Assembly (NCBI GenBank): GCA_964405625.1
Contig: CAYOPA010000003.1
Span: 1-39,053, forward strand
Length of the DNA stretch: 39,053 bases
Source of the DNA: an uncultured Bryobacterales bacterium
Lineage (GTDB): Bacteria; Acidobacteriota; Terriglobia; Bryobacterales; UBA6623
Direction: 5' to 3'
Below are positions 1-27,209 of the stretch, piece after piece. Position 1 is the stretch's first letter, and each line of letters starts with the position of its first letter. Below the pieces are notes generated by a model, which saw only the letters and a list, made by a program, of their open reading frames with translations, was not told the origin of the DNA and ran no database searches. The position numbers and the translations under genes are program-made.

Positions 1-907
1 AGGGCGTTACGATCAGCGTCGCCTCGCCCAGCTTGCGGGCCAGATCGGCCGCGGCCAGACCGACCGCTTCGTGTTGGCCGCAGTTGTCCGGCGCCAGGAT
101 CAGCCGGTTGCGCTCCACGCCGGGCGCGACGGCCCTGGCTTTGGTCAGGTCATGGACCGCCTCCAGCACAGCCTCGGAGACGCCGTGCGAGCCCTTGGCT
201 GCGATGCGCTCGCGCCATTCGGTTACAAAGCGATCCGGTTGCGGCTGGCGCCGGCCGGCGGCGGAAGCTTGACGCGAGAACAGCTCCGTGAGCCCGATCC
301 CGCCGCGGCGCATCGACTCGGGCCAGTCCGGGCGAGTCGCCGCCTCGGCTGATGCGGCCGGCGCGGCCTCGGCGACGGCGGCGGTCCGGCGCGGACGGCT
401 CCAACCTACCCGCAGCAAGGTCAGCGAAAGCAGGGCGGCCGTTGACCAATGCGCCGCCGGGTATGACGAAGCAGTGTCTCCCAAGCGCGACCAAGCGGCC
501 GCCAACAGGACCAACAACGGCAGCGAGCAGAGCATGACCCAGCGCCGGTTGTCGGTTTCGTAGCCGATCGATCCCGCCAACCAACGCCCGCGATCGGCCG
601 CGGTCTTCGTCGCTAGGCCGATCATCAACAGGCCCCCCCATGCCAGCAAGGGAAGAAACAGCCACACCTCCTGGCGGTCCATCCACGGAATCCGCGGCGC
701 CACCCCGGGATAGCCCGCCGCGAAGGCGTAGAGGAGCAGCAGCGGGACGCCGATCGCAGCGACGGTCCAGGCGGCGACGCGGCTCCAGTAGGTCCCCGTG
801 TCGCCCAGCTCGGCGCGGCCGCGGGCGCCCAGGTCCGCCAGCAAGGTCAGCAAGAAGCCGACCAGCAGAACCACAAGCGGCAACAAGCCGTTGAGCTCGA
901 AGCTCAT
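1..907 (-). CDS. Partial CDS (runs off the left edge): N-terminal multi-TM region followed by a degenerate SF2/DEAD-box-helicase-like P-loop region
   Basis: Translated by hand; not in the ORF track. ATG at 907 overlaps the upstream TGA (ATGA) and follows GAGGGGAGGAG (SD). Open for 302 codons to the edge: MSFELNGLLPLVVLLVGFLLTLLADLG... with about 4-5 hydrophobic segments, ending NRLILAPDNCGQHEAVGLAAADLARKLGEATLIVTP. Confidence 0.8.
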   Translation of the reverse strand, partial: MSFELNGLLPLVVLLVGFLLTLLADLGARGRAELGDTGTYWSRVAAWTVAAIGVPLLLLYAFAAGYPGVAPRIPWMDRQEVWLFLPLLAWGGLLMIGLATKTAADRGRWLAGSIGYETDNRRWVMLCSLPLLVLLAAAWSRLGDTASSYPAAHWSTAALLSLTLLRVGWSRPRRTAAVAEAAPAASAEAATRPDWPESMRRGGIGLTELFSRQASAAGRRQPQPDRFVTEWRERIAAKGSHGVSEAVLEAVHDLTKARAVAPGVERNRLILAPDNCGQHEAVGLAAADLARKLGEATLIVTP

Positions 908-3306
908 CGCTCCTCCCCTCGCTTGAGCAGCTCGGTCGGCACGCCAAGCTGCATCTCCAGGAAGTAGGCCCGCTCCCCGCTCTCTCCGCCCGCGGGCCGC
1001 TGGTAGCCGGCTTCGCTCAGGTCATTGGCCACGCCCTCCAGGTTCAGCCACGTCATGGGGAATATGCTCGATCGCGTGACGGCCGACTCTGTTGGCGCCT
1101 GCAACAGAAAGAACGCCAGCGGCGGCTTGGAACAGAGCTTGATGGCCGCGCCCAGCGCGTCGGCGCGCTCGCGCTCGCTCACTGAAGGGCCTTCGCCCGA
1201 GCCGGTCTGAATCGGGTCGCGATAGTCGGCGCTGAGCTTGTCCAAGAAGACCAACGGGCGCAGAAACTCCTCGCAGTATCGCTCCGACCAGCTTCCAAAG
1301 AGATCCAGCTTGGTCTGCCGCTCGCCGAAGTGGGTCGGCTCGGCGGTGCGCTGGCTGAAGACGGCCGCGAGATCCTCGTTGCGCTCCAGTTGGCGCAGCG
1401 CGGAGTGTCCGCGGCGGCGGCCGTCGAACTGGGGGCGCGGTCGGCTCGAGTCCACGCCGTTCATGTCGAGAAAGCTGCCGAGCTGGTCGATCAGCCAGTC
1501 GATCTCGCGGGCACGGCGGCTGAGCAGATCTTTCACGCGCAGCAGCTCGCCGAGCACGTCGCCCAGCACCCGCATCCGCAGCGAGGCCGCGACGCTTTCG
1601 GCATGGGCTCGGAGCTCTTGCTGAACGGCCGCCGAGCGAGTGGCCGTCCGAACGCAGTCCGTCAAGCGCCCCCGCTGGGCGTGGCGGGAAAAGTCGTCGG
1701 CTCGGCGCGAGCGCTTCTCGATCGAGCGCTGGAATACCTGCCGCCCGAGCTGCCAGCCCAGCAGCCAGAAGGCGGCCAGCATGGCGATCGGCGTCAACCG
1801 CTGCGCCCAGCCCTCCAGCTCCACGAATTCGCTCAGCGCGTCCGTCGCGAACGGCGCGGCGGCCAGTGCGAAGACGACGCCAAGCAGCGGCCACCAAACA
1901 TCGGCGAGCCGTTCCGTGCGCACGCGCCCTGCTTGGAACGTTTGGTATTGTTGATGCCGCTCGATGACGGCTTCAAACGGGTCGGCCTCTTCACCGGAGA
2001 CCGCCGAGTTGTCCGGGGGAGGCTCGTAGCGCAGCCGCGGCTCGAAGCGCTCGATCTGGTCGAGCAACTGACCGATGGTCAGCGGATCGCGGACAGCGTC
2101 GAGCTCGCGCAGCACCGCGCCCTCAAGCCGTTCGCGCAGGCCGGCCAGGCGCTGCTCGGCGATGACGCGGGATTCCCGTCCGGCTTCCTGCGAAATCTGG
2201 TCCTTGAGCGCCCAAACCGACCGCCGCCAGCCTTCGGCGACCTGCCGGGGCCAGTCGGGCGCGGCGGGGTCCAGCTTCAGGAGCTTGGTCTCGATCTCGT
2301 CGATCCCCTTTTCGCGCAAGGCGTCGATGCTGTCCAAACCGAGTGTCTGCTCGAGCTGCTCAGGCAGGTAGTCGTGGAGAATCTCGGCCAGCGGCTCGCG
2401 CCGGGCGGTCTCGCCCCGCTTGATGAGGTAGTCCAGAAAGAGCCGCGAATACGTGGCGGCGCTGAGGCGCGCGATCAGCCCGAAGCTGAGCTGGATGCCG
2501 CGAATGCCGACCAGGGCCGCCGCCGGCGCGCCGTCGTCGTCGCGCTGGTAGAGCCGCTCATTATCCCCTTGCCGCTGGCCTTCAAAGAGCAGGAACTCCA
2601 GGAATAGTGCGGTTTCGTCGATACGGGCGTCGCGGTCGCGATGGCCGCCGCGAGTCTCGCTGTCAAACAGGTAGACGCGGCCGAAGTTGGGTTGGCGGCG
2701 CTCGGCGGCCTGCTGGTTGCGTTCGAAGGCGTGCGCCACGGCGTCGCGGATGCGGTTGTGCTCCGCCGAAGTGCGCCAGTAGTCGTCAAAATCGAGGATC
2801 TGGAGAAAGTTGAGCTGGTCGGCGCCTTGTTTGACGCGCGTGAGGGCGAGCCCCTGCGAGAGCTCGCGCAGCATCGGCTCGACCACTTCTTGCAGCTTGC
2901 CGACAGCCTCGGCCCGGCTGGGGTGTGCCAGCACAATCACGTCCAGACCCTGGCTGCGGTCGGCGGCGCCGTGCGCGTCGGCGGCGTGCAGGCGGCGTTT
3001 CGCTTCGCCGGCGGCCCGCGCCAAGCTTTCGCCCACGCCGTAAGGGCCGGGCTCGACCTCCTCGATCTGACGAAACAGATCGACCATCACCTCCGGCGTA
3101 CGCTCCTTGCCGCTGCGGGGGTCGAGCGGGTCGGCGGCCCACAGCAATGCCAGCCCGCGCAGTCGGCGGCGTTGCAGGGAAGCCGGATCGTCGCGTTCTT
3201 CCCACTCCAGCGAGCCGCGCGCGGCGGCGCTGCGCAGCAACCGCTCGAGCACGGTGCGGCCATAGTCCCCGTAGCCGACGAGGATGGTGGGATGCAGGCG
3301 CTTCAT
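904..3306 (-). CDS. Divergent, probably GTPase-inactive tubulin/FtsZ-like protein with an internal TM hairpin (800 aa)
   Basis: N-terminal ILVGYGDYGRTVLERL matches the tubulin-like GxGxxG loop. Segments are collinear with the adjacent tubulin-like gene, but the GGTGSG signature is replaced by LAHPSRAEAVG. Two hydrophobic helices: WWPLLGVVFALAAAPFA and LTPIAMLAAFWLLGWQLG. Confidence 0.7.
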   Translation of the reverse strand: MKRLHPTILVGYGDYGRTVLERLLRSAAARGSLEWEERDDPASLQRRRLRGLALLWAADPLDPRSGKERTPEVMVDLFRQIEEVEPGPYGVGESLARAAGEAKRRLHAADAHGAADRSQGLDVIVLAHPSRAEAVGKLQEVVEPMLRELSQGLALTRVKQGADQLNFLQILDFDDYWRTSAEHNRIRDAVAHAFERNQQAAERRQPNFGRVYLFDSETRGGHRDRDARIDETALFLEFLLFEGQRQGDNERLYQRDDDGAPAAALVGIRGIQLSFGLIARLSAATYSRLFLDYLIKRGETARREPLAEILHDYLPEQLEQTLGLDSIDALREKGIDEIETKLLKLDPAAPDWPRQVAEGWRRSVWALKDQISQEAGRESRVIAEQRLAGLRERLEGAVLRELDAVRDPLTIGQLLDQIERFEPRLRYEPPPDNSAVSGEEADPFEAVIERHQQYQTFQAGRVRTERLADVWWPLLGVVFALAAAPFATDALSEFVELEGWAQRLTPIAMLAAFWLLGWQLGRQVFQRSIEKRSRRADDFSRHAQRGRLTDCVRTATRSAAVQQELRAHAESVAASLRMRVLGDVLGELLRVKDLLSRRAREIDWLIDQLGSFLDMNGVDSSRPRPQFDGRRRGHSALRQLERNEDLAAVFSQRTAEPTHFGERQTKLDLFGSWSERYCEEFLRPLVFLDKLSADYRDPIQTGSGEGPSVSERERADALGAAIKLCSKPPLAFFLLQAPTESAVTRSSIFPMTWLNLEGVANDLSEAGYQRPAGGESGERAYFLEMQLGVPTELLKRGEER

Positions 3307-3325
3307 CGCCGTCGGCCTCGCGGCG

Positions 3326-6300
3326 TTACCCGGCCGCGTCCTTGTCCGGCGGCGGGTCGAAGCTCAATTCGCTCTCGCGCAACAGCGATCCGGATGCAGC
3401 GGAGCCTTGCGTCAGCGGCCGTCCGCTCTTGGCGTCGAGCAGGTCGTCCACAATCGACTGAATCACCCGCAGCACCGGCTGATCGAGCTCCTCCTGGCGC
3501 GAGTTCTCGCCGCGGCGGGCGGCCATGGCGATATCTTCGATCAACTTGCCCGCCCAGGAGCGCAGGGTCTCGGCGCGGCGGCGGAGCTCGTCGGGTCCGT
3601 AGGACTCCTTGGCGGAGTCGACCATTGTTTTGAAACGCGGCCCCAGGTCCTGGTCCAGGTGGTACTCGCCCAGCGTGTAGAGCGCCGCGGCCAGGTTCTC
3701 GCCCAGCGGCTCGCTGTCCTCGGCGTTGCGGCGCCAGAACAGTCCCTCGCGCGTCTTGACGATTACTTGCGTCAACAGGCCATCGACCAACCGGTCCAAC
3801 GCCCACGAGGCGCTCAGCTCGCCCTTGCGCGGGTTGAGGTTCGGCAGCGCCTTCTCCCAGTGGTAGTCGGTGTGCAGATGGTACGCGCGGCGCTCGTTGG
3901 CGGCCACCCGCTCGTAGGCGTTCTCAATGTCGCCCACCACGGCGGCGAAGTAGTACAGCGGGATCGGCAGCTCCATGTCGTGCACGATCGCCAGGTGCGG
4001 GCTTGACCAGCCCGAGTGCTGCGGCTCGCGCCCGCCGCGCTCCAGAATGCGGCGCAAACGGGAGTCGAAGTCCGGCGACACGGAGTCCTTCTTGATGACG
4101 TAGTGCCGCGTCTGCGCCACCTTCACGCCGTCGTCGAGCGTGTCGAGCTCTTCCGAACGCAGCCGCGCCGTCACCCCCGCGAGCTGCGAGAAGGCGACCA
4201 GCTTGCGGTCTACATAGTGGTCGATCTCCGCCTTGCTCGGGGGCTCGCCGGCGCGGCCGGGGGTCAGCAGGCGCGCTTCCAGCTCCAGGCCGGTCTCGAT
4301 ATTGAGCGCCTTGACGTCGTCGTCGCCGTAGATGGTGCGCCGCAGCCGGTCGCGGCCCAGCTTGAGCAGGGCTTGGCGCAGGTCGGTGACGGCCTGGCGC
4401 TCGGATTTCTCGACAAAGCGGCCGCTGCCGGGGTCGCGGACGGGCTTGAGCTCGGCGGCAATGGATTGCGAGAGCACGTTGCGGTCATACGTGGTCATGT
4501 CGCGCCCGCCGTCCACGAACAGCGCGCGGTAGACCTCGGGCCAGATGCGGCGCCGGGGCTTGTCGAGCGTCTCAAAGACCTCCACAGTTAGCGCCATGCG
4601 GGCGATGATCGGATTCGCGCCGCGCCGCAGGGACTCGGCCTCGGTCTCCATGTCCTGCACGAGGTCGTTCATGCGGGTGGCCAGCCGGGCGTAGAGGTGG
4701 CCGCGCTTCTGCATGTAGTCGAGCAGCTCGCGGTACTGCGACTGCTCCAGCTTGGCGTCGAAGTAGCGCTTTTGGGCTTGGGCTACCGTCTGGAAGTTCC
4801 GCTGCGCCTCGTCGCGAGTGCGCATGAAGGTTTCTTCGTCGTGCCGGAACCCCCACTTCTTGGCTTCGGCGGCCTGTTGCAGGTTTTCCAGGAACTCGCG
4901 CTCCAACCGCTCCTTGACCTTGGGGTTTTCGAGGCTGCCTTTCTCGGCTTTCTCGAAACGCTCCTTGATCTCCGGCATGATCTCGCGCTCGCACAGGTCC
5001 AGCAGGCGCAACACCAGATAGCGCTCTTGCATCGGGTCGAGCTTGAGGTCGCGAATCACATCGCCTTCGGCGGCTGAGTTGCGGACCTGCTCCAGGCCCT
5101 CGTCGACGACGACGGCGCCCTTGCGGATGTCCTCCACCAGCCCGTTGACCTGCTGGAGGTACTGGTTGACGCCCTCGCGGTGGAAGACGAACACGCGCTG
5201 CTTGATCGAAACCCTGTTCAGGATCGGCTCGCGCTGCTTGGCCAGCTCGGCGCGGACCTTTTGCACCAGCGTCTCGGCGCGGCGGGCCTCGCCGTTTTCG
5301 TCCACGCCGCCGGTTTTGCGGCCCAGGTCCACGTCCTCCACCAGCCGCTGCCAGTAGCCGTTGGTGATCTCGTCGCGCTCGTCCTGCTGCGCCATCGCCT
5401 GGACGGAGAGCACGAAGGCCTTGTTGATCTCGCGGTAGCGGTCCTCCTCCGCCATGTTGCGGAATTTTGGGTCTTCGTAGTTGACCTGCAAGCGCTCCAG
5501 GGCGCGGGCGCGGTCATCGGCGGCGTCCGGGCTGACACCGAAGGTGATCTGCCGACGCAGGGCTTCCGCCGCGAAGCGCAGCGCTGAGTACTCGTGCAAA
5601 TCCTCGGCCGGCAGCACCAGCGTCGCCAGCCCGAACGCGCCGAAGTTCTTGGCATAGCCGCGGCCGACATTCTTGAGGTCGCCGGGAAAACGGGTCAGTT
5701 CGGTGAGGTGCTTTTCGTAGTTGTCCGCCTCGCTGAGGATGCGCCCGATGATGGGCGTAAAGGCTTGCCAGAAGGTCGCGTCGGCCGCTACCGCCACGAT
5801 ATCGCCGACGGCCATTTGCGGCGGCAGATCGTAGATCGACGAGTAGTAAAACGGGGCGGTCTTCACGCGCGGCGGCTCGGCGCTGGACTGGTTGTTCCAG
5901 TAGACGAAGGTTTCGCCGTTGGGCAGATCCTTCTGCACGTCCGGGTACTGGATTTTGGTCAGGTGCTCGAGTTCCTTGAGCGCGGCGTAGGTGTTGGCGT
6001 GGATGTCTTGGTGCAAGTCCGGGGCGACCTTGTTGAGCAGCGTGGTGGAGAGCAGGAAGTTGCCGATCACGCGCGGCCGCCAGTGCAGGCTGCGGATCAC
6101 GTCCTGCAAAAGGTAGGCCGCGCACAGAAAGCAGCCCGAGCCGGTGCCGCCGGCCAGGGTGGCGTACACGTAGACGTAGATGGTGGGCGGGTCGGCGAGG
6201 CGGAACGTGTTGTCGGCCTCCAGCAAGTGGCGCAGCACCTGTGCGAACCGCTCGCGAATCTGCGGGCTGGAGTAGTGAAAGCCCAGCCGCGATTCCACCC

Positions 6301-6652
6301 GAATCTGGCCTGCGCCGAAGCCGCCGCCGGGTCGCGGCCGGTAAGCCTTATCCAGCCACTGCAGGGCCTGCTGGTCGCCGGATTTGCGGTAGTTTTCCAC
6401 CGCTTGATGCTTATCAAAAGCGCCGATGGTGATCTTGTTGCCGCGCGGAACATGTTCCAGCATGTTCTGGTCGTTGATGTCGGTGTCGATGGAAACGAAG
6501 GCGGTCAGGGGCCGCAACGCTTCGTCCCAATGGGGCAACTGCTTGGCCCGCGCGGCCATGCGATCGACGATTCTTGAGCCCGCGCCGCCGAGACCCACGA
6601 ACATGCGCGGCGGCACTTTTCCCTGCAAGCTCAGAATCGATTCATCCGCCAT
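3326..6652 (-). CDS. Tubulin-like domain protein (Tubulin_2 / FtsZl1-type GTPase) with long helical/coiled-coil C-terminal region (1108 aa)
   Basis: FVGLGGAGSRIV, GAGQIRVESRLGF, YATLAGGTGSG (tubulin signature, nt about 6134-6154), ANTYAALKELEH; SD GAGGAG upstream of the ATG. Confidence 0.92.
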   Translation of the reverse strand: MADESILSLQGKVPPRMFVGLGGAGSRIVDRMAARAKQLPHWDEALRPLTAFVSIDTDINDQNMLEHVPRGNKITIGAFDKHQAVENYRKSGDQQALQWLDKAYRPRPGGGFGAGQIRVESRLGFHYSSPQIRERFAQVLRHLLEADNTFRLADPPTIYVYVYATLAGGTGSGCFLCAAYLLQDVIRSLHWRPRVIGNFLLSTTLLNKVAPDLHQDIHANTYAALKELEHLTKIQYPDVQKDLPNGETFVYWNNQSSAEPPRVKTAPFYYSSIYDLPPQMAVGDIVAVAADATFWQAFTPIIGRILSEADNYEKHLTELTRFPGDLKNVGRGYAKNFGAFGLATLVLPAEDLHEYSALRFAAEALRRQITFGVSPDAADDRARALERLQVNYEDPKFRNMAEEDRYREINKAFVLSVQAMAQQDERDEITNGYWQRLVEDVDLGRKTGGVDENGEARRAETLVQKVRAELAKQREPILNRVSIKQRVFVFHREGVNQYLQQVNGLVEDIRKGAVVVDEGLEQVRNSAAEGDVIRDLKLDPMQERYLVLRLLDLCEREIMPEIKERFEKAEKGSLENPKVKERLEREFLENLQQAAEAKKWGFRHDEETFMRTRDEAQRNFQTVAQAQKRYFDAKLEQSQYRELLDYMQKRGHLYARLATRMNDLVQDMETEAESLRRGANPIIARMALTVEVFETLDKPRRRIWPEVYRALFVDGGRDMTTYDRNVLSQSIAAELKPVRDPGSGRFVEKSERQAVTDLRQALLKLGRDRLRRTIYGDDDVKALNIETGLELEARLLTPGRAGEPPSKAEIDHYVDRKLVAFSQLAGVTARLRSEELDTLDDGVKVAQTRHYVIKKDSVSPDFDSRLRRILERGGREPQHSGWSSPHLAIVHDMELPIPLYYFAAVVGDIENAYERVAANERRAYHLHTDYHWEKALPNLNPRKGELSASWALDRLVDGLLTQVIVKTREGLFWRRNAEDSEPLGENLAAALYTLGEYHLDQDLGPRFKTMVDSAKESYGPDELRRRAETLRSWAGKLIEDIAMAARRGENSRQEELDQPVLRVIQSIVDDLLDAKSGRPLTQGSAASGSLLRESELSFDPPPDKDAAG

Positions 6653-6747: not shown

Positions 6748-9057
6748 TTATCCGGATCGCAATTCGAAATACAGGCTGCGGTCCACGGTGCGAAAGACGA
6801 TCCCGGTGGAGACGGGCGTCTCGCGGTCAGCTAGCGGCTCCCAGGTTCCGTCCACGGCCTGCCGCTCCAATGCGCCCGGCGTCTCCTCGCGCATCTGCAG
6901 GCGGGCGCCGTCGGCGCGCAGCCGGGCCAGAGCCCCTTTGCGCTTGCCGCTGAGCCGGAAGTCGGACTGCACATAGATTCGCGCGTCCCGATAGAAGCCC
7001 GCGCTCGCTCCCGAAGCCCGGCGGATCTCATAGAACACGCCCTCGTTGAGATCCTCCTCCGGCGAGAACTGCACGCCCAGCCTCGAGGGAAATCGCGACG
7101 GTGAGATGAAGCCGTAGGCGATGATTCCGCCCATCAGGATCGACGCCAATCCCGCCAGCCACTGCCAGTAGCACTCCAGCCATGGGTCGGGAATGATCTC
7201 GACTGAGAGCGTCGCCGAAGAGCGCAGCACGGAGCCGTCCACGCGGCGCGCCTCCAGGGTGATTTCGTGCTGCTCGTCGAAGCTGCACGCCGACGGGCAC
7301 TCGTTGGTCAGGATCTGGATGCGGTACCCATGAGGGCCGCCGGGTTGCAGGGTCAGCTCGACCGGATCGCGGCCAAGCTGCCGCCACTGGCCGTTGCTTT
7401 CGATCTCGACGCGCGCCCGCGAGCGGTCAAAATCGGTGGTCACGAAGACGTTGGTGGGCACGGACAGACGCACGCCGGGCAGGTCGAGGCGGCCGTCCAC
7501 GGCGCTGGAACTGCTCACCGGCCCCAGCTTAACGGGCGCCGGACGCGGGCCGAAGTCGAAATCGTCGAGTGCCGCGCCCGGCGGCGGAGGCGGGGGCGGT
7601 GCGGGAGGCGCCGGCGCGACGGGTTCGCTTGGCGCGGGCTGAACGGGAGGCGCGGGCGCCGGTGAAGGAGCGGGCGTCGGCCGGGTGGTCGGCGCCGGCT
7701 CGGGCGCAGGCGCCGGAGTTGGCTCGGGCGTGGGCGCGGGCGTCGGGGCCGGCGGAGGCGGGGGAGGGGGCGGCGCGTCGCTGACGTCCACCGTCAGATT
7801 CACCGTTCGATCGATGTCGCCGCTGCGCAGCCGCGCTTCCACCTGTTGGCGTCCGGAGCCGGAAAAATTCACCCGCGCCGAGTAGCGGCCGTCGGCGTCA
7901 CGTCTGAAATCGACCGGCGCGCCGTTGATTTTCGTATCCATCCGCAGGCTCGACAGGATGCGTGGGTCGGTAATGGCCGCGCCGGTGCGCTCGTCGTAGG
8001 CCTCAATGGTCAGGGTCGATTCCTGGCCGGTGGGGGCCGTGGTCGTCAGCATCCGCAGGCCGATGGAGCGCTCTTGAATCAGAATCCAGCCGCCGCCGGC
8101 GCGCGAGCCCGTGCGGAACGTCCAGGTTCCGGGGCGCGGGTTCTTGAAATGCACAATGCGGTAGCCGCGGTTGACGCCGTCGACCCCGACGGTGCTGCCG
8201 CCCCCGCGGTAGTTGAGGTCGAGCTCATCAGCGCCGGGGTTGCCGCCGCCTTGCTGAAGAGCGGGCAACGGACCGTCGGCTGCGACCACCAGATAGGCCT
8301 CCTTCACCATGTCGTCCATCTGGATGACCACGTCGCCGCGAATGGGGCCGCTCTTGACGTTCTGCGCGCCCAGGAACCGCTGGTAGACCTCGCCGACAGC
8401 CTTAGCCAAGTCAAATGCGCTGCGGGCCGCCGTGGCGTAAGCGTACGGCGGGTCGCCACGAAACGAGCCCGCATCCGTGCCCAGATTGATGGCCGCGATC
8501 ATCGCGCCCGAGCCGCGCAACTGGTTGAGCTCCCGCAGCAAAGGCGCTTCGCACTCGCCGAGCCCCCCGGCGTCGGCGACGATCAGCAGCAGCCGCGGCC
8601 CGGAATTGCCCAGAAACTGAAACGCAGTGTGGAGCTGGCGCGCGAAGTGGGTGTAATTGTTGTAGATCAGAAAATCCGTGAGCTGCCGCTTGAAGCTTTC
8701 CCGAGGGCCCCGCAGCTCCAGCATGAGCGAGGAGTCGGCCGGGGCGGAGCAATCTTCGTGGAATGGTCGGGCGATTCCGCCGCCCAGCAGCACTTGCAGC
8801 GCCGGCGGGATGGACGAGCGCTGCGCCGCGTCCCGCGCCTCGGCCGCCTGGCGTTCGTTCATCATGCGGAAGACCGCGTAGCGGTCGCCGTCCTCGACAA
8901 TGTCGCCGATGATCTTGGAGAGCTGCTCGGCGTAGTCCTGCGGATCGTACTCCTTCATGGAGATGGAGGTGTCCACCACAACGGCGATTTTGCGTTGGGC
9001 GGGGGCGGCGACGGCTGTCAGCAGCGCGACGAGGGTGATGAATAGCAGTTGCCGCAC
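6748..9057 (-). CDS. vWA-domain single-pass membrane protein, copy 4, with Pro-rich linker (769 aa)
   Basis: GTG start 2 nt after the upstream stop; signal peptide; VVVDTSISM MIDAS; NPRPGTW beta-sandwich motif; Pro/Ala/Thr linker; TM WQWLAGLASILMGGIIAYGF; about 120-aa cytoplasmic tail shared with paralogues. Confidence 0.88.
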   Translation of the reverse strand: MRQLLFITLVALLTAVAAPAQRKIAVVVDTSISMKEYDPQDYAEQLSKIIGDIVEDGDRYAVFRMMNERQAAEARDAAQRSSIPPALQVLLGGGIARPFHEDCSAPADSSLMLELRGPRESFKRQLTDFLIYNNYTHFARQLHTAFQFLGNSGPRLLLIVADAGGLGECEAPLLRELNQLRGSGAMIAAINLGTDAGSFRGDPPYAYATAARSAFDLAKAVGEVYQRFLGAQNVKSGPIRGDVVIQMDDMVKEAYLVVAADGPLPALQQGGGNPGADELDLNYRGGGSTVGVDGVNRGYRIVHFKNPRPGTWTFRTGSRAGGGWILIQERSIGLRMLTTTAPTGQESTLTIEAYDERTGAAITDPRILSSLRMDTKINGAPVDFRRDADGRYSARVNFSGSGRQQVEARLRSGDIDRTVNLTVDVSDAPPPPPPPPAPTPAPTPEPTPAPAPEPAPTTRPTPAPSPAPAPPVQPAPSEPVAPAPPAPPPPPPPGAALDDFDFGPRPAPVKLGPVSSSSAVDGRLDLPGVRLSVPTNVFVTTDFDRSRARVEIESNGQWRQLGRDPVELTLQPGGPHGYRIQILTNECPSACSFDEQHEITLEARRVDGSVLRSSATLSVEIIPDPWLECYWQWLAGLASILMGGIIAYGFISPSRFPSRLGVQFSPEEDLNEGVFYEIRRASGASAGFYRDARIYVQSDFRLSGKRKGALARLRADGARLQMREETPGALERQAVDGTWEPLADRETPVSTGIVFRTVDRSLYFELRSG
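7579..7775 (-). repeat. Low-complexity Pro-rich linker (PPPPPPPPAPTPAPTPEPTPAPAPEP...PPPPPPP) within vWA copy 4
   Basis: Read directly from the translation; about 65 aa of P/A/T/E repeats. Confidence 0.9.
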
Positions 9058-9059: not shown

Positions 9060-11396
9060 TCAGCCTCCGGTCCTGGGCTCGAAGTACAAGGACTTATCGT
9101 CACTACGGTAGACGACGCCCGTGCGCGCCGGCGTTTCCTCAGGCGGCAACTCTTCCCATTCGCCCAGCAGATTCTCTCGCCACAGAGTGTGTCCCACGGC
9201 CGGCTGGATCATCACCCGGCCGCGATCGGCGCGCAGCCTCGCCAGCGCCGCCCGTTTGGCTCCGGAGACCCTGAAGTCGGGGCTTAAGTATAGCCGCGCG
9301 TCGCGGTAGAACCCCGCGCGTGAGCCCGGCTGCGAGCGAAAACGGTGGAAAAACCCCTCCTCCAGGTCCGCTTCCTGCGAGAGCTGGACGCCGTCGCGGG
9401 CGTTGAATCGCGACGGCGAGGTGAAGCCGTAGACCACCACGCCCCCCAGCATTGTCGCCAGCGCCGCCGCGAAGTATTGCCAATAGCAGTCCCAGAACGG
9501 ATCGCCGATGACTTCGGCTTGCAACGGCGCCCGCAGCTCGACCACGCTGCCGTCGGCGCGTTCGGCGCGCAGCACGATCTCGTGCGGTTGCGAGGGCGAG
9601 CAGGCCGTCGGACAGCTCTCGGCGGCCAGGCGCAAGGCGACCCCGCGAACCCCCGGCCGCAGCCGGAGCGCCGGCTCGTCGCGGAGCGGCGTCCAGCCCT
9701 CGTCAGTCTGGATCAGCAAAGGCGCGTTGGACAGGCGCAGGGTGGTCGCCGCCCGCGCCCGCACTTGGCCCAACACCTCCACGCCGGACAGGTCCAGCAT
9801 CCCCAGAGCTTCCTTGCCGCCGCGGATTGGTCCCAGCGTGACTGCGGGCAACGGACCGGATGCCGAGAGCCGCCCCAGCGCCTCGACCCGAAAATCAACG
9901 CCGTCACCCGCCACGCCCGGCGGCAACTCCAGCCGCAACGCGAGCTCGCCGGATCGCTCCGGCGTCCACTGCGCGCTGTAGCCGCCGGAACCGTCGTGCG
10001 CCAGCCGGATTGTGGCTCCGTCAGGCAGACGCGCTTCCACGTACGGCGGGGCTCCAGCCGTCGAACCTCCGCCGCCCCGCAAGCTCGCCCGCGCCCGGAG
10101 CGTCACCGGCTCTCCCATGTCCACCTTGGCCGGAATTTGCGGCTCGATCGTCCAGCCGGGCTCGCGGAAATCGAGGCTCAGGTTCAGCCGCCGCTCCAGG
10201 TCGCCGCCTCGCAACACGGCCGACGCGGTCCGGCGCCCCGCGCTCGGCAGGTTGGCGCGGGCGCTGAGGATGCCGTCACCGGCTTTCTCGTCGCCGTTGG
10301 CTCCGTCGTCGCGGAGGGTCAGGCGCTGGCCGTTTAAGTCCAGGTCCACTTGCAGCGAGGGCAGGTCGGCCCCGACTATGCGCTGGCCCGTGCGCTCGTC
10401 GTAAACCTCAAAGGCGATCAGCGCCGACGGCCCCGCGGTGAACGCTTCCAGCGGCCGGACGGCGATGGCCGACTCCTCTATCAGCATCCAGCCGCCCGCC
10501 GCCGAGCCGGCTTGGAAGCGCCAGCGCCCGCCCCGCGGATGGGTCAGCCGGGCGATGCGGTAGTCGCGTCGCTTGCCGTCGAGCCCGATCGTCGAGCCGC
10601 CTCCGCGCAGGTTCAGGTCCACGGCCTTAGCCGAGGGGTTGGACGGACCCGGCGTGAGCGCTGCGAAATCCCCATCGGCCGCCGCCACCAGAAAGGCTTC
10701 CTTGACGTAGGGGCCGATCTCGACCTCGATGGCGCCGCCCTTGAGCCGTCCCGTCTTGGCGCCACGCGAGCCTAGAAAGCGCTGGTAGACCTCCGCGACG
10801 GCGTCAATCAGCTCGCCGGAATCGCGGGCCGCGCTGCTGAAGTGGAACGCCGGGTTGGAGCCGAAACCGCCCGTAGTCGAGCCGATATTGACCGCCGCCA
10901 CCATGCCGCCGCTGTCGCGAAAGCGCTTGAGCGTGTTTGTGAGCGATACATCACACTCGTTGCTCAGCCCTCCGGAATCAGCCAGGAACAACAGCAGGCG
11001 GTCGTGGGACGGATCGAGGGTCAGCAACTCCAGAGCCGTGTGGATGGAAGCCGCAAACTTGTTGCCGCCGGTGTAGCGGCCAATGAACCCGTCGATCGAG
11101 CCCTTGAATCCGGCATAGTCGCCCGGCCGCATCGCCAGGCGCAACGCCGGGGTCGGCGGGGCGGAGCAGATATCCACCTCGCTGGAGCTGGGCGGCAGGC
11201 GGTTGACTTGGTAGCGGTCGCCGGGCTCGGTGAGGTCCGCCAGGATCTTGGCAAGCTGGACGGCGTATTTGGGCGCGTCCATGCGGATCATCGAGCCCGA
11301 AGTGTCGATCAGCACGTTCACGCGCCGCTCGGCCATGGCCGGGACCGCCAGAGCGAGGGCGGCCGCCAGGGCCGCGAGCGGGAGGCGCGGGTTCAT
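9060..11396 (-). CDS. vWA-domain single-pass membrane protein, copy 3 (778 aa)
   Basis: Signal peptide (AVPAMA); VLIDTSGSM MIDAS; HPRGGRW; LRDDGANGDEKAGDGILS motif; TM YWQYFAAALATMLGGVVVYGF; conserved tail. ATGA overlap with the upstream gene. Closest paralogue of 6748-9057. Confidence 0.88.
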   Translation of the reverse strand: MNPRLPLAALAAALALAVPAMAERRVNVLIDTSGSMIRMDAPKYAVQLAKILADLTEPGDRYQVNRLPPSSSEVDICSAPPTPALRLAMRPGDYAGFKGSIDGFIGRYTGGNKFAASIHTALELLTLDPSHDRLLLFLADSGGLSNECDVSLTNTLKRFRDSGGMVAAVNIGSTTGGFGSNPAFHFSSAARDSGELIDAVAEVYQRFLGSRGAKTGRLKGGAIEVEIGPYVKEAFLVAAADGDFAALTPGPSNPSAKAVDLNLRGGGSTIGLDGKRRDYRIARLTHPRGGRWRFQAGSAAGGWMLIEESAIAVRPLEAFTAGPSALIAFEVYDERTGQRIVGADLPSLQVDLDLNGQRLTLRDDGANGDEKAGDGILSARANLPSAGRRTASAVLRGGDLERRLNLSLDFREPGWTIEPQIPAKVDMGEPVTLRARASLRGGGGSTAGAPPYVEARLPDGATIRLAHDGSGGYSAQWTPERSGELALRLELPPGVAGDGVDFRVEALGRLSASGPLPAVTLGPIRGGKEALGMLDLSGVEVLGQVRARAATTLRLSNAPLLIQTDEGWTPLRDEPALRLRPGVRGVALRLAAESCPTACSPSQPHEIVLRAERADGSVVELRAPLQAEVIGDPFWDCYWQYFAAALATMLGGVVVYGFTSPSRFNARDGVQLSQEADLEEGFFHRFRSQPGSRAGFYRDARLYLSPDFRVSGAKRAALARLRADRGRVMIQPAVGHTLWRENLLGEWEELPPEETPARTGVVYRSDDKSLYFEPRTGG

Positions 11397-13693
11397 TGGT
11401 CAGATTCAGCGCCGGAGGAGAATTCGGTGCGAAAGGTGCGAACCTCGCCGCTGGATGTCTGATAGCGGTAGCCGCGGCGGGCTTCGACGGCGTAGAGGTT
11501 GCCGTCGGGGGTGGGAACGTCACGCCAATCGGCGCCCACTTGCTGCTGCACGGCCCGTGCGCCGGCGGGAGGGCGGAAGGCGTACAAGTCGCCGGCCAGG
11601 GGCCGGAACCAGCCCAGCGGCGACTGGCCGCCCGGCGCCTCCATCGGAAGCTCGGACTCCAGCGCCGCTACCCGGCGGAACAGCGGCGCATCTCCCAGCG
11701 GCAGCGGTGTGAACGGCCCTTGCGGCCCCGGCGCGGACGCTGCGCGGAAGTCCGGCGGCAAGGTCGGGCGGTAGCGGGCGAACCAAGCCAGCGCCGCCAG
11801 CAGCAGCAACAGCAGCAGCAACGTCGCCAGCGACCAGTAGCGCTGCAACAGGTTCGGCTGGGCCACTTCCAGCTTGACCGTGAAGGGGTCGGACAGCGCG
11901 CCCAGCGGCATTTCGCGATAGGGCGTCTCCGCCAGGCTGAAGTGCAGCTCAACGCCGGCCGAGCCGCCTTGGCCGGGCCGTCCGATCTCCACGCAGACCT
12001 GGAAAGGCCGCTCGGAGCCTTCGGCCGAGTCCGAGCGCTTGAGCCGCGCGATCAACGCCGAATCGAGCTCGGCTGTCCACGGATCGCGGCCCGGCTGCGG
12101 CTCTCGCACCGGACGCGACGCCACCGAGGAGCCCTGGATCTGCAATCGCACCGAGGCGCCGCCCAGCGGCCCGCTGCGCAGCTCCGCCTTGGGGTCGAGC
12201 GACGCCGTCAACCGGTAGGGCCTGCCCGTGGAGGCGCGGGCCTCAAAGCGGTCCCAGGGTTCCAGCAAGAGCGCGAAATTGGCGCAGCCCACCTCCGAGC
12301 GGGCTAAATTCCCCCGATCGGCGTCGGCAGTGGCGGGGGTGGAGCGTATGCGCAGCAATGGCTTCACCGTGGCAGCCATCCCTTCCACGCCGCTCAGCGT
12401 CTCCAGCGTCACCTCGCCGCGCATGGCCCGCACCTCCAGGCGGCCCAGGTAGGAGTCAGCGCCCGCCGGAAAGGTCTCCTTGAAGACCGGGCAGACCTGA
12501 AACTCGCGCGCGTCGCCGTCCGAGTTGAGCTCGCCGCCGGAAGCAGGGAACCAGCCGTCGATATAGCTCGGGCCGGAGATCCGGAACGACACCGTGATGT
12601 CCGCCGGCGGAGGCTCCCTGGAGCCGCCCTTCAGCCGTAGCGCCACCGTCTGGCAGAGGTCGCTGCGGGTGGCCAGCGTCTCAAAGCCGCGGGGAGTCGC
12701 CCAGCTCAGCTCAATCTCGGGAGGACGCAGAATGGCGATGGTGGCGTTGGGAGCTGCCGTCCGGATTGGCGTGAGCGCCTCGGGTATCGGGGCCGTCAGC
12801 CAGCGCAGGGCATAGGCGGCGCCCACTTCCGAGGCGACTTGCAGCGGGTTCGGCGTCCCCAGCGGCTCGGTCGGCGACAGCTCAAAGCCGGGCTGAACCG
12901 CGGACTTCCAAAAAGCCACCACAGCGGCGTTTTCCGGAATCACCCGACCTCGCAGCCGCAGTGAGTTGCCACTGACGGTCTCCGAGACATACCCGCAACA
13001 GCGCCCGAAAATCTCGATCATGTTCTCCAACAGGTTCTGGCCCGACGGGTCTTCAAAAACCTCGCCCAGGCTGCGGCCGTCCGGGTTGATGGCCGGGTCC
13101 GAGGGATTCACGACCGGTTGAAAGAAGCCCGAAGCCGCGGCCGCCTGGTCGCCGAAAGCCAGCACCAGCAGGCGCGTGTTCGTCTCCAACATACGCGGCG
13201 CCAGCTTGCGCAGGATCAGGCTCTGGTCCAGGTCGGCGCGATCGCTGAGGCCATCGGTCAGTACCACGACCAAGCGCTCGCCCTCGCGGGCTTCCAAGCG
13301 CTTCGTCGCCACGCAAAGGGAAGGGTAGAAGTAGGTCCAATCGGCGTCGTAGGCCAGCGCTGCGAGCCGCGTCTGCAAGTTCGCCCCGGCGGCCGCTCCC
13401 GACGAGCCGCGCGTGGGCTCGACCACGCCGCCGGAGCGCTCCTCGCAGGGCTCGCTCGAATCGGTCCACTTCTGGCCGCCGGGCTGGAAAGGGATGACCT
13501 CAAAGGTGTCGCCGGAGGCCAAATCCGGGCGCGCCAGGTCAAACAGCATCGCCGTCGAAAGCGTCGCCAGCCGCTTGGGGTCCTGACGCAGCATCGACTT
13601 CGAGGTGTCCAGAATTACGACGATGTGCCGCGCGGCCTGGGCCGTCGACGCCAACAGCAACAAGCCCGTCAACAGCAGCGCATAGCGTCTCAT
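11393..13693 (-). CDS. vWA-domain single-pass membrane protein, copy 2, the most divergent (766 aa)
   Basis: Start reassigned to ATG 13693 (TGATG overlap with the upstream stop), giving the signal peptide MRRYALLLTGLLLLASTAQA. VILDTSKSM and VVVLTDGLSD MIDAS elements; TM YWSLATLLLLLLLLAALAWFA; more divergent tail. Confidence 0.85.
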   Translation of the reverse strand: MRRYALLLTGLLLLASTAQAARHIVVILDTSKSMLRQDPKRLATLSTAMLFDLARPDLASGDTFEVIPFQPGGQKWTDSSEPCEERSGGVVEPTRGSSGAAAGANLQTRLAALAYDADWTYFYPSLCVATKRLEAREGERLVVVLTDGLSDRADLDQSLILRKLAPRMLETNTRLLVLAFGDQAAAASGFFQPVVNPSDPAINPDGRSLGEVFEDPSGQNLLENMIEIFGRCCGYVSETVSGNSLRLRGRVIPENAAVVAFWKSAVQPGFELSPTEPLGTPNPLQVASEVGAAYALRWLTAPIPEALTPIRTAAPNATIAILRPPEIELSWATPRGFETLATRSDLCQTVALRLKGGSREPPPADITVSFRISGPSYIDGWFPASGGELNSDGDAREFQVCPVFKETFPAGADSYLGRLEVRAMRGEVTLETLSGVEGMAATVKPLLRIRSTPATADADRGNLARSEVGCANFALLLEPWDRFEARASTGRPYRLTASLDPKAELRSGPLGGASVRLQIQGSSVASRPVREPQPGRDPWTAELDSALIARLKRSDSAEGSERPFQVCVEIGRPGQGGSAGVELHFSLAETPYREMPLGALSDPFTVKLEVAQPNLLQRYWSLATLLLLLLLLAALAWFARYRPTLPPDFRAASAPGPQGPFTPLPLGDAPLFRRVAALESELPMEAPGGQSPLGWFRPLAGDLYAFRPPAGARAVQQQVGADWRDVPTPDGNLYAVEARRGYRYQTSSGEVRTFRTEFSSGAESDQ

Positions 13694-15855
13694 CAGCCCA
13701 GCCTCGTCGCGGTTTGGAAAAACGGCCCGCGCTCGCCGATGCGGTAGGTCTCGCCGCCGCGAATGCGGGCCCCCGCCTCGGGAACTTCGTCCCAATCGCC
13801 CACGCCGCCGTCGCGATACAACATGCCGCTCGTGCTCTTGACCATCACCGTGCGTGGTCCCACCGCTTCCAGCGCCACCACGGCGCCCTTCTTATTGCCT
13901 GTGACGCGGAAATCCGCTGTCAGGTAGGCTTTGGCGTTGCGGTACCAGCCTTTGCGCGTCCCCTTCCAGCTTCGGATGGATTGCGGCAGGTTGTCCTCGA
14001 TGTCGTCAAGCTCGGGCACATAGACCAGCGCCAGCTCGCGAGGGAAGGAGTGGGGCTTGATGAAGCCGTAGATGATGAACGCCAACACCAGCAACGCCAG
14101 AGCGCCCAGAATCCACCACTTCCACAGCTCCCAGAACGACAGGCCGTTGACCTGCCAGCTCAGCTCCAGCGGGACGCCGGCGCTGGGCGCGTCCACGCCG
14201 CGCATCCGCAGCTCGGTCCAGCGCCGGGCGTCGCCGCTGGAGGACGGCGCGCGTCGCTCGGTCACCAGGCACAGCGTCTTCTCGTCGGTCGGGCCGAGCA
14301 GCAGGGGCTCTCCGCCAGGCCGGGAAACGCCCGCCGCCGCGCGCAGCTCCAGTGCGTGACCGCCGGGAAGCGTCTCCAGCATCTTCAGCTCCAAGGGGAC
14401 GTTGCCCACGTGCTCGGCTTGGAACACCAGCGGGCGACAGGCTTCCTCGCCGGCCTTGAGCGTCCCGAAATCCAGCGAAACCGGCGGGCCGGAGTAGCGG
14501 AACATGCCGCTGACGTCGATTACGCCGCGCGCGGTGCGGTCAACAAAGCTGTTCGACGCGCGCACGATCACCGGCGCGGGGCCGGGCTGGGTCAGGGTGA
14601 TCTTGCCGGTGAAGCGACCGTCGCCGGACTCGCGCAACTCCACCGTGCGGCCCTCGATGGTCGCTTCCATCATGACCTCTTCGCCCAAGTCGGCCGGACG
14701 AATGTCCGCGCCGCCCTCCGAGGCCCGCAAGACCACGGTCATGGTCGTCTCAACGCCGGAGATCACCGAGCGCGGCTCCAGAATGTGCGGCGCCAGATCG
14801 GAGCGCTCAATCACGGCGTAGGAGACGTTCGGCCCGCCGCCGGTGGCGCGGACCTCCCACTGCCCAGGAGCGGGGTCGCTTAGGTAGGCCACTCGGTAGG
14901 CGCCCGCTCGGGTCTGCTGGTCGGCGGCGAAGTCCGCGGCGATCTCGCCTCCGGGGCCCGCCACGCTTGCCGCCGATAGAGTCGCGTCGCCGAAGATCAC
15001 CACCCAGGCCTCGTCGATCTCGGGCTTCATCTCAAAACGCGGGTTTGCGGCCACGCGGCCGTCGGAACGGAACGGCGCCCTTACGATGCGCCGGAACGAA
15101 TCGGCGAAGGCCGACATCAGCTCGGCCGGGCCGCTGGCTTGGCGGCGCGGCAGGCCGGCTTCGGCGGCTTGGTCGGTGCTGCCGCGGCCGAACACGATCG
15201 CCTCGACGCCAACCTCGTCCTGCTGGAGCTTTCGGAGGATCTCCATCGACTGCGGCCAGTCCTCGGCGTCGCCGTCAGAGAGGACGATCAGCGTTCGCGG
15301 AATATCAGGCGCGGAGTGGCGATTCTGATCGAAGATCGCCTTAGCCGTCGCGAAAGAGAACGCGAAAAAGCTCTCGTTCCCGTCGGCTTCGAGGTGGGCG
15401 TCGAGCTCGCTCTTAAATTGCGTCGAGCCCCGCCGGTCGCGAATCTTCTCCCCAACGAGGCGCTTTCCCTCCAGCAGCTCGCGGCCGACCTCCGGCGGCA
15501 GCGAGTAGCCCGAGCAATTCATGCTGGGGTCCTCGCGGCAAGGCTTAAACTCGCCCGATTGGACCATGCCGACGCGCTCTTTGTCCCTGGTGGCGGACAT
15601 CAGGCGTAGGATGGCGAGCTTGCCGGGCACTATGTCGGAGAACAGCTTGGAGACAAGCACCGAGGTGCGCTCGGGGTCCATGCCTGGATTGAGCATGCTC
15701 CGGGAGGTGTCAACGACAACGGCGACGTCGGTCGGAAACGAGTCTTGGGCCGAAAGCGACGCGCCGAAGCAGGCCAGCCAGGCCAGCGCGAGCGCCGTCG
15801 TCGGGCCGTGAACGGCGGCTCGATGTCTTCGTAAAGAAAAAGCCCGAAAAGGCAT
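13693..15855 (-). CDS. vWA-domain single-pass membrane protein, copy 1, first gene of the cluster (720 aa)
   Basis: Signal peptide (..GASLSA|QD); VVVDTSRSM and LIVLSDGD MIDAS elements; DPAPGQW; TM WWILGALALLVLAFIIYGFI; conserved tail (GWYRNAKAYLTADFRVTG). Confidence 0.88.
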   Translation of the reverse strand: MPFRAFSLRRHRAAVHGPTTALALAWLACFGASLSAQDSFPTDVAVVVDTSRSMLNPGMDPERTSVLVSKLFSDIVPGKLAILRLMSATRDKERVGMVQSGEFKPCREDPSMNCSGYSLPPEVGRELLEGKRLVGEKIRDRRGSTQFKSELDAHLEADGNESFFAFSFATAKAIFDQNRHSAPDIPRTLIVLSDGDAEDWPQSMEILRKLQQDEVGVEAIVFGRGSTDQAAEAGLPRRQASGPAELMSAFADSFRRIVRAPFRSDGRVAANPRFEMKPEIDEAWVVIFGDATLSAASVAGPGGEIAADFAADQQTRAGAYRVAYLSDPAPGQWEVRATGGGPNVSYAVIERSDLAPHILEPRSVISGVETTMTVVLRASEGGADIRPADLGEEVMMEATIEGRTVELRESGDGRFTGKITLTQPGPAPVIVRASNSFVDRTARGVIDVSGMFRYSGPPVSLDFGTLKAGEEACRPLVFQAEHVGNVPLELKMLETLPGGHALELRAAAGVSRPGGEPLLLGPTDEKTLCLVTERRAPSSSGDARRWTELRMRGVDAPSAGVPLELSWQVNGLSFWELWKWWILGALALLVLAFIIYGFIKPHSFPRELALVYVPELDDIEDNLPQSIRSWKGTRKGWYRNAKAYLTADFRVTGNKKGAVVALEAVGPRTVMVKSTSGMLYRDGGVGDWDEVPEAGARIRGGETYRIGERGPFFQTATRLG

Positions 15856-15945
15856 GGCCCCGACCCCTAAGATAGTAGCCTAAGCGACCGCCGCGCGGGA
15901 CGGGCTCCGGCCCGCGTGCGTCGGTGCGGTTCAGACCATAGCGCC
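15856..15945. promoter_or_regulatory. Divergent promoter region between the vWA/tubulin cluster and the pseudokinase gene
   Basis: 90-bp gap between head-to-head genes. An AT-rich patch CCTAAGATAGTAGCCTAAG (15866-15884) has -10-like hexamers on both strands (TACTAT minus, TAAGAT plus) and a CCTAAG direct repeat. Confidence 0.45.
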
Positions 15946-27018: not shown

Positions 27019-27209
27019 GCCTTCACCGCTCCCTCCAGGTTACACCCCAGAGCCCCAACGCGGAGCTCGTCTTCGCGGGCGAGGACGTCACGTTTACGTG
27101 ACGATTCATACAGCGTGTTCGAGCCGCCCGTGGCCCCGGGATCAGCGTGATACACTGGCAAATGGTGACGCTTTTTTGCAGCCTGATCTCCGGCTTCGCT
27201 CGATTTCTG

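Follow-up and report, generated by a model that had tools for sequence, protein, structure and literature searches.

The question raised by this locus is whether a bacterial tubulin-like GTPase can be paired with an inactive copy of itself that is anchored in the membrane. In a stretch of 39,053 nucleotides (nt) from an uncultured Bryobacterales bacterium (contig CAYOPA010000003.1, assembly GCA_964405625.1; this whole stretch is called the window here), two tandem genes of a minus-strand operon encode the proteins in question. The first is P0002 (3326-6652, minus strand), an FtsZl1/Tubulin_2 protein of 1108 amino acids (aa), and the second, directly downstream, is P0001 (904-3306, minus strand), a protein of 800 aa that we regard as a degenerate FtsZl1 paralogue (pseudo-GTPase) with a predicted membrane hairpin in the middle of the protein. 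An earlier note on this DNA, made from the letters alone, had proposed that one intact and one dead, membrane-anchored tubulin-like subunit stand side by side here. The analysis below leads us to think it probable that the pair consists of a GTP-binding FtsZl1 protein and a duplicated pseudo-GTPase copy, and that the dead copy serves as the membrane-bound partner of the active one.

The intact FtsZl1 copy

P0002 is clearly a member of the FtsZl1/Tubulin_2 family, predicted to be soluble and, as judged from its sequence, with all nucleotide-binding motifs intact. It matched PF13809 (Tubulin_2) with 134.5 bits (cut-off 27; E 6.9e-39) and so passed the gathering threshold, its residues 18-365 spanning positions 2-355 of the 356 of the profile. 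The Tubulin_2 GTPase domain defined by this match and by the motifs lies at 5558-6601 (minus strand, as are the motifs that follow) and contains the T1 motif FVGLGGAGS (6575-6601; GLGGAGS is residues 20-26), the loop GAGQIRVESR (6287-6316) and the T4 motif LAGGTGSG (6134-6157; GGTGSG is residues 168-173). All 36 of the diverse Tubulin_2 sequences compared keep G20, G22, G23, G25, G113, Q116 and R122 as well as G168, G169, T170, G171 and N220 (P0002 numbering), while DNYE at residues 310-313, conserved in 27-32 of the 36, is a candidate for a T7-type catalytic loop. No hydrophobic segment was found in P0002 by hydropathy analysis. When the genome of this bacterium was scanned with PF13809, P0002 was the sole match, and a separate canonical FtsZ gene is present on another contig (C6); P0002 has 253 relatives with E<=1e-3. 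The Tubulin_2 family corresponds to FtsZl1 as defined in Makarova and Koonin 2010 (PMC2875224), and the passages of that paper on the family describe T6-H7 as not identifiable in it.

Relationship of P0001 to the Tubulin_2 family

P0001 itself gave no family match in Pfam, NCBIfam or PADLOC and stayed below the gathering threshold of PF13809, and a BLASTP comparison with P0002 was not significant, the best hit (E 0.028) lying in unrelated C-terminal helices. It does belong to a family that is real and under selection. A word-based search returned 22 close relatives and an exhaustive HMMER profile search 169 family representatives at 50% identity; of these 169, the 150 that were listed comprise proteins of about 800 aa and fragments, without a single 1100-aa FtsZl1 protein. 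In species genomes, 30 loci of this type were located, in Acidobacteriota (Thermoanaerobaculia, Holophagales) and in Gammaproteobacteria, where the hosts are Competibacteraceae, Methylococcaceae and Chromatiaceae.

The relationship between the two proteins was examined by profile-profile comparison (hhalign). With a narrow Tubulin_2 alignment, two fragments aligned (P0001 4-38 with P0002 13-45, E 0.01; P0001 210-322 with P0002 270-401, E 0.0074), and the full domain scored 33.7 against 33.2 for the best of 60 block shuffles, none of which reached 33.7; the result stood barely above the shuffles because the N-terminal strand and the glycine loop gave most of the score. The Tubulin_2 template was then widened with 10 diverse N-domains from genomes, and only with this template was a clear signal obtained: P0001 2-338 aligned with P0002 11-417 over 322 columns (probability 89%, E 2.3e-6, score 53.5). 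None of 60 block shuffles reached this score (best 39.5, median 28.0), and the reversed template gave 14.3. Without the first ~45-50 residues of either profile, the real alignment scored 32.0 and the best shuffle 25.2, again with 0/60 shuffles reaching the real value. As a positive control, the widened Tubulin_2 profile recognized 29 acidobacterial FtsZ sequences with a probability of 92.4% (E 5.2e-7). By this comparison, the N-domain of P0001 is homologous to that of Tubulin_2, and the conclusion that P0001 and P0002 are distant paralogues of the Tubulin_2/FtsZl1 branch is well supported. A search of PDB sequences with the P0001 family profile gave nothing relevant; the Tubulin_2 profile itself had 0 PDB matches at E<=10, and this search is therefore too insensitive here.

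The earlier note had listed five collinear pairs of motifs as signs of this relationship, and each of its ten strings was located in the translations. The first four pairs, in the order P0002 and P0001, are VGLGGAG (19-25) and VGYGDYG (10-16), VYVYATLAGGTGSG (160-173) and VIVLAHPSRAEAVG (123-136), SSIYD (271-275) and VYLFD (211-215), and FGLATLVLP (340-348) and VGIRGIQLS (266-274); the widened alignment pairs them in the same way. The fifth, C-terminal pair, DMELPIPL (892-899) and EMQLGVPT (784-791), was rejected as homologous, the C-terminal halves having no detectable similarity (E 0.29-0.33).

Predicted structures were available for two P0001 homologues, P0017 and P0004, both present with identical sequence in the ESM Atlas. 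P0017 is 33% identical to P0001 over 99% coverage, and its model (predicted template modelling score, pTM, 0.54; predicted local distance difference test, pLDDT, 0.65) had as its best match, with a template modelling (TM) score of 0.61 by query over 657 aligned residues, a cluster that is 99% PF13809; another Tubulin_2 cluster reached 0.60, one structural match of P0017 has its aligned part named PF13809, and PF00091, FtsZ and gamma-tubulin clusters were matched as well, with TM scores by row of 0.54-0.58. For residues 1-345 of P0004, which is 81% identical to P0001, 21 of the 30 feature matches were to members of the Tubulin_2 set; among the named structural matches, the best (TM score 0.59 by query, 249 residues) again has its aligned part named PF13809. 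As far as predicted models can tell, the Atlas models of the homologues agree with the sequence result.

Loss of nucleotide-site residues in P0001

That P0001 is degenerate at the predicted nucleotide site is well supported. To describe this, 77 sequences of the P0001 family were mapped onto the residues that are invariant in the 36 Tubulin_2 sequences. The tubulin-like N-domain of P0001 (residues 1-345; 2272-3306, minus strand), delimited by hhalign and the column table, retains most of T1 as the remnant GYGDYG (3256-3288, minus strand): across the family G11 is kept in 70 of the 77 sequences, G13 in 68 and G16 in 75, with A, E, D or R in place of the fourth glycine. The T4 equivalent GLDVIVLAHPSRAEAVG (2899-2949, minus strand) reads RAEAVG in P0001 where Tubulin_2 has GGTGSG, and the six columns in the family hold D/S/R, then A/P/R, then E in 28, D in 12 and A in 11, then V/A/T, then L/I/V and finally G in 61 of the 77, this last glycine being the sole conserved T4 residue. 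The GAGQxR loop, N220 and DNYE 310-313 fall in gaps of the P0001-family alignment. Scaffold residues are common to both families and were found in most of the 77 sequences (W35 in 68, D215, E231 and G267 in 73 each, and F286 in 66). A further motif, RIDEIxLFLEFLLFEGQR, is strongly conserved and peculiar to the P0001 family; in P0001 it is RIDETALFLEFLLFEGQR (2572-2625, minus strand).

The two genes also differ in their rate of change. In a comparison with the window proteins, limited to the 17 loci in which both genes are full-length, the P0001 orthologues were less conserved than the FtsZl1 orthologues in all 17 (median identity 33.0% vs 49.7%), which shows that P0001 evolves faster than P0002. 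The earlier description of one intact and one degenerate copy is thereby borne out, the motifs of P0002 being complete and those of P0001 lacking T4, the GAGQxR loop and N220.

Predicted membrane hairpin of P0001

By Kyte-Doolittle hydropathy, a membrane hairpin of two hydrophobic helices is predicted in P0001 at 1732-1908 (minus strand), midway along its helical half, with the first helix at residues 467-491 (1834-1908, minus strand) and the second at residues 505-525 (1732-1794, minus strand). The hydropathy peaks in P0001 itself lie at residues 467-495 and 505-525, and those of the family mean at residues 473-491 (1.73) and 507-525 (1.92). At least two hydrophobic segments in the middle of the protein were found in 72 of the 77 family members, one in the other five and none in 0/77. 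Arg and Lys are frequent on both flanks of the hairpin, and the loop between the helices is short and acidic; by the positive-inside rule, both large domains of P0001 would therefore lie in the cytoplasm. The hairpin had been noted earlier in P0001 and not in P0002, and these hydropathy profiles agree on both proteins.

Conservation of the gene pair

In the window the operon is transcribed from the minus strand in the order g6, g5, g4, g3, P0002, P0001, g0. A spacer of 19 nt (3307-3325, minus strand), which contains a GAGG Shine-Dalgarno-like element, separates the stop codon of P0002 from the ATG of P0001, and in several related loci (e.g. L007, L008 and L011) there is an overlap of 4 nt between the two corresponding genes. 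Directly 5' of the P0001-like gene, an FtsZl1 gene is found on the same strand in 23 of the 30 loci. In three others (L016, L019, L024) a contig end is too near for the upstream side to be judged, and in four loci of Chromatiaceae (L023, L026, L028, L029) no FtsZl1 gene was found within the flank. The genome of L029, the only one of these four that was checked, has the FtsZl1 gene on the same contig and strand, ~10.5 kb upstream. Among the genomes checked, the P0001 family occurs only in those that also carry its FtsZl1 subtype. On the 3' side a g0-like gene follows in 25 of the 30 loci, and upstream the order g6, g5, g4/g3 is retained in related loci. These data indicate that the pairing of P0002 and P0001 is conserved.

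The insert of L029 (L029 1-9988; genome G152, contig C69) lies on the opposite strand in one of two copies of the system, and its genes are unrelated ones; their products are an AcrB-type resistance-nodulation-division pump, an HlyD-type fusion protein, AAA-ATPase_like/PDDEXK_9 proteins and a LysE protein.

Neighboring genes

Upstream of P0002 stand four tandem paralogous genes, all on the minus strand: g3 (6748-9057), g4 (9060-11396), g5 (11393-13795) and g6 (13693-15855). The true start of g5 is probably an internal ATG at 13693, which overlaps the end of g6. Each of the four proteins begins with a signal peptide, followed directly by a MIDAS motif (DTSxSM), and has a single membrane helix at the C-terminal end that leads into a cytoplasmic tail of ~115-125 aa. 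The prediction for all four is a periplasmic vWA protein. Only g6 reaches the cut-off of Pfam VWA (24.4 bits; cut-off 23.8), and g3, g4 and g6 are similar to one another with E values from 1e-26 to 1e-148. The tails of these three share the pattern GFYRDAR...DFR.SG...ALARLRAD.

Downstream of P0001, g0 (2-907, minus strand) is present with its initial 302 aa, the contig end cutting the gene at position 2; its ATG overlaps the stop codon of P0001 (ATGA). Four hydrophobic segments lie in the part of g0 that is inside the window, and the rest of the gene is on another contig of the same genome (C597). Full-length relatives of g0 are about 960-1020 aa long, with a polytopic N-terminus and a C-terminal zinc-binding domain of the MZB/DUF1998 type (MZB, PF09369, E down to 1.4e-8). 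In relatives, g0 is followed by an ORF (open reading frame) of ~800-900 aa, a DO-GTPase2-like gene and an ORF of ~500 aa (L002 12394-20174). The DO-GTPase2-like gene matched PF19993 with 27.1 bits in L002 and 35.4 bits in L011 (cut-off 27), and its place is outside the window, which ends inside g0. A protein on contig C598 of the genome under study is 76% identical to the DO-GTPase2-like protein of L002, yet a scan of this genome with PF19993 gave nothing at E<=0.001. In L002 and L011, the ORFs that follow the GTPase or g0 gave no Pfam match to GAP1 at E<=1.

Divergent from the operon, a Ser/Thr protein kinase gene (15916-18549, plus strand) encodes a protein with an N-terminal zinc ribbon and a membrane helix at residues 332-363. 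It gave weak Pkinase and zinc-ribbon matches in Pfam and kinase matches in NCBIfam and PADLOC; it is also weakly similar to the defence-associated models PD-T4-6, MkoA and MADS6. An orthologue with 56% identity stands in the same divergent position in the genome of the closest relative, and none was found at E<=1e-10 in four more distant genomes. When the operon proteins were searched with PADLOC with an anti-phage role in mind, only generic kinase models and weak tails for g0 and its neighbor were returned.

The remaining window (18560-38723) looks like ordinary envelope and polysaccharide metabolism, with a beta-lactamase-family hydrolase, a sulfatase, an EamA transporter, an amidohydrolase, a DHDPS-family enzyme, heparinase II/III-like, NHL-repeat, TPR and DUF3485 proteins and a sugar transferase; the ORFs at 26946-27899 and 36429-38723 had no Pfam match. 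The G+C content of the window is ~68%. In a search of sequencing runs, no RNA run was listed.

FtsZl1 genes in other operons

Strong PF13809 matches were found in 5 of 151 sampled Acidobacteriota genomes. Five further matches were weak, and at least two of these (G025 and G006; E about 1e-4) coincide with the T4 region of canonical FtsZ, so that low-scoring Tubulin_2 matches should not be counted as FtsZl1. Among Pseudomonadota, 3 of 301 sampled genomes had PF13809 at E<=0.001, two of them above the cut-off.

Eight FtsZl1 loci of other operon types were surveyed; in two of them an intact soluble copy is followed directly by a degenerate copy with a hairpin. The first gene of each (L044 and L046) encodes GGTG[AS]G and lacks a membrane segment. 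The second gene of L044 encodes 1081 aa, with a partial PF13809 match (E 2.8e-13), an hhalign probability of 97.7%, the T4 sequence CDTVGS and a hydrophobic region at 624-688. That of L046 (likewise L063) encodes 915 aa, has no Pfam match, lacks the T1 glycines and has a hydrophobic region at 514-558; its family (A4; at least 157 clusters, with a precomputed PF13809 match in 10 of the 120 listed) was related to Tubulin_2 with a probability of 97.7% (E 2.4e-12). The profile of the P0001 N-domain did not match the A4 family significantly (E 0.081), and since the degenerate families have no detectable match to one another, one origin and several are both compatible with the data.

Another locus (L045) carries two tandem Tubulin_2 copies that the locus survey classed as intact, and L048 has a downstream ORF of 731 aa. 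The L045 pair (L045 1869-11862, minus strand; genome G040, contig C47) differs in kind from the tubulin-like pair of the window: the proteins are 1482 and 1419 aa long with N-terminal extensions of about 100-150 aa each, and GGTGSG is intact in the 1482-aa copy, a pattern search giving no match in the 1419-aa copy.

Proposed role of the pair and alternative explanations

If the pair works as we think probable, the dead copy P0001 would reside in the inner membrane and bind the soluble P0002, as a presumed heterodimer, either by contacts of the tubulin type or by way of the long helical stalks; the membrane would then be the only place at which FtsZl1 formed GTP-dependent assemblies. There they would lie beside the four single-pass periplasmic vWA/MIDAS proteins and the polytopic MZB protein, with a DO-GTPase-like gene further downstream. 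The periplasmic vWA proteins may sense something outside the cytoplasm, the cytoplasmic tubulin-like pair may convert this signal into assembly, and the output could be a remodelling of the membrane, as in Makarova and Koonin 2010, or a response in conflict or immunity, as in Kaur et al. 2020. Such an arrangement would account for the coupling of a soluble tubulin-like protein to vWA sensors in the periplasm, and it would provide the tubulin superfamily with a candidate pseudo-GTPase from bacteria. It also gives a testable design, in that it assigns GTP binding to one subunit and the membrane to the other and indicates what to co-express.

Several of our own results weigh against this proposal, and they are given here together with the alternatives on which they bear. 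One alternative, which we hold to be unlikely, is that P0001 is a tubulin-like pseudo-GTPase whose partner is g0 (or the vWA tails); it would then be a scaffold or adaptor at the membrane, with FtsZl1 working separately. P0001 overlaps g0 and not P0002, a g0-like gene follows it in most loci, and in Lamprocystis purpurea (L029) and its relatives the P0001-like and g0-like genes stay together at a distance of ~10.5 kb from FtsZl1; given this overlap and this split, the closest functional tie of P0001 could be to g0. On the other side, FtsZl1 is directly upstream in 23 of the 30 loci, often with a 4-nt overlap, and, among the genomes checked, the P0001 family is confined to those that have this FtsZl1 subtype as well. 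Paralogue pairs of the tubulin superfamily, moreover, typically pair with each other. A tie of P0001 to g0 and one to FtsZl1 are not mutually exclusive.

We consider it rather improbable that the pair acts like a bacterial dynamin-like pair, driving membrane tubulation, fusion or fission with GTP by means of the hairpin. The earlier note had pointed to a dynamin-like architecture, and as architecture this stands: a GTPase, a long helical region and a membrane hairpin are distributed over tandem paralogues, and membrane remodelling was proposed from gene context in the main text of Makarova and Koonin (PMC2875224). Membership did not stand, as no dynamin or P-loop family was matched in Pfam, NCBIfam or PADLOC; the GTPase is of the tubulin type, and the hairpin is on the subunit without a nucleotide site.

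A further possibility is that P0001 is an active nucleotide binder with a non-canonical phosphate loop, so that two active subunits would be combined as in BtubA/BtubB; we give it little credence. Three of the four T1 glycines are kept in the P0001 family (G11, G13 and G16 in 68-75 of the 77 sequences), as is G136 (61/77), and P0001 could therefore still have some residual nucleotide binding. Against activity, four of the six T4 positions are replaced, with an acidic residue at the Thr position in 40 of the 77; the GAGQxR loop and N220 are absent, though invariant in all 36 Tubulin_2 sequences; and P0001 is the faster-evolving member in 17/17 loci.

The relationship to Tubulin_2 has points against it as well. 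At E<=1, none of 60 P0001-family members matched PF13809 or PF00091 in Pfam, no consistent Pfam family appeared among them, and two of the 60 gave a weak TrkA_N match at the GxGxxG motif. Compared directly with FtsZ, the P0001 profile was not significant (E 0.34), and the link to the superfamily therefore runs only through Tubulin_2. The C-terminal halves of P0001 and P0002 showed no sequence similarity in three attempts, and the support for the fold comes from homologue models of moderate confidence (pTM 0.54 and 0.46, pLDDT 0.65 and 0.61 for P0017 and P0004), not from P0001 itself. That P0001 lies outside the tubulin family and merely has a generic Rossmann-like GxGxxG N-terminus, similar by convergence or chance, would fit the Pfam and FtsZ results, the non-significant BLASTP comparison and the narrow alignment that barely exceeded its shuffles, but we think it highly improbable, because the widened alignment (probability 89%, E 2.3e-6) keeps its signal without the GxGxxG block (0/60 shuffles), the Atlas searches of two homologues returned Tubulin_2, tubulin and FtsZ clusters and not Rossmann dehydrogenases, and the structural residues W35, D215, E231, G267 and F286 are common to both families.

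The pairing of a GTP-binding FtsZl1 with a membrane-bound dead copy may extend beyond this operon type. An active and a dead copy stand together in three mutually very divergent operon families, so the arrangement would be ancient or have arisen repeatedly. It is conceivable, though we would not expect it, that FtsZl1 proteins, which are the most divergent branch of the tubulin/FtsZ superfamily, work in general as obligate pairs of an active and a dead subunit. A pseudo-GTPase embedded in the inner membrane by its hairpin would then cap or nucleate the GTP-dependent assembly of the soluble subunit, controlled by periplasmic vWA sensors. A second paralogue was not detected in four of the eight other FtsZl1 loci, a result that weighs against the proposal made above for the window pair. 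If true, this would be a prokaryotic counterpart of the asymmetry of alpha/beta-tubulin in which the dead subunit is the membrane anchor as well.

Comparison with known systems

The pair falls within systems that have been described from sequence, the vWA/FtsZl1 operons of 2010 and the tubulin DO-GTPase systems of 2020, a context that was absent from the earlier reading. That reading is partly confirmed, in that four of its five motif pairs and the hairpin hold. The surrounding system was already known computationally, and the predicted dead, membrane-anchored partner would be the new part. No description of an inactive, membrane-anchored FtsZl1 paralogue was found in the literature, where supplementary tables may list the family uninterpreted, and no experimental study of any FtsZl1/Tubulin_2 protein was found in the searchable literature, the family having been known from sequence since 2010. 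In its passages on these proteins, a survey of 2023 (PMC9871819) set the Tubulin_2 proteins aside as divergent.

The main text of Makarova and Koonin (PMC2875224) describes FtsZl1 operons that contain vWA proteins, kinases, a distinct GTPase and many lineage-specific membrane proteins. The operon of the window is like these in its vWA proteins with intact MIDAS motifs, its membrane proteins, its nearby kinase and, in relatives, a distinct GTPase downstream. It is unlike them, as far as that main text goes, in having a degenerate paralogue with a predicted membrane hairpin as a fixed partner, and Acidobacteria are unmentioned there; the partner families A1-A2 and B1-B9 of that study are given in its supplement and may include the P0001 family, not recognised as tubulin-like.

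Kaur et al. 2020 (PMC7159879), in the passages that deal with tubulin, describe GAP1-N2 DO-GTPase systems around tubulin genes, which in Firmicutes have two genes for a tubulin with a coiled coil and two vWA genes. The combination of two tubulin-domain genes with extracytoplasmic vWA genes is present in the window as P0002, P0001 and g3-g6. Judged by those passages, the likeness extends to the C-terminal coiled coils of two tubulin-domain genes, the extracellular vWA domains, the membrane-proximal components, the kinases with a zinc ribbon and membrane helices, and, in relatives, a DO-GTPase2-like gene after the operon, with a possible counterpart on contig C598 of the genome studied here. The difference is that no GAP1 domain was detected in the ORFs of L002 and L011 and that an inactive or membrane-anchored tubulin copy is not described in the same passages of PMC7159879. 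The locus extends the tubulin/vWA/DO-GTPase theme beyond Firmicutes and Actinobacteria, its stated limits.

Outside these operons, three kinds of systems invite comparison with the pair. Bacterial dynamin-like pairs resemble it in being tandem paralogues of a large GTPase with a stalk and in having a hairpin or paddle that inserts into the membrane, and they differ in that their fold is of the P-loop and not of the tubulin type. FtsZ, with FtsA/ZipA, is likewise a soluble tubulin-like GTPase that needs a separate membrane-bound protein; here, unlike FtsA or ZipA, the proposed tether would be a degenerate paralogue of the GTPase itself and not an actin-like or unrelated protein. Like alpha/beta-tubulin and BtubA/BtubB, finally, P0002 and P0001 form a paralogous pair of predicted tubulin fold with asymmetric nucleotide sites; unlike alpha/beta-tubulin, in which both subunits bind GTP, one member of the presumed heterodimer, P0001, lacks the phosphate-binding loops and is predicted to be embedded in the membrane.

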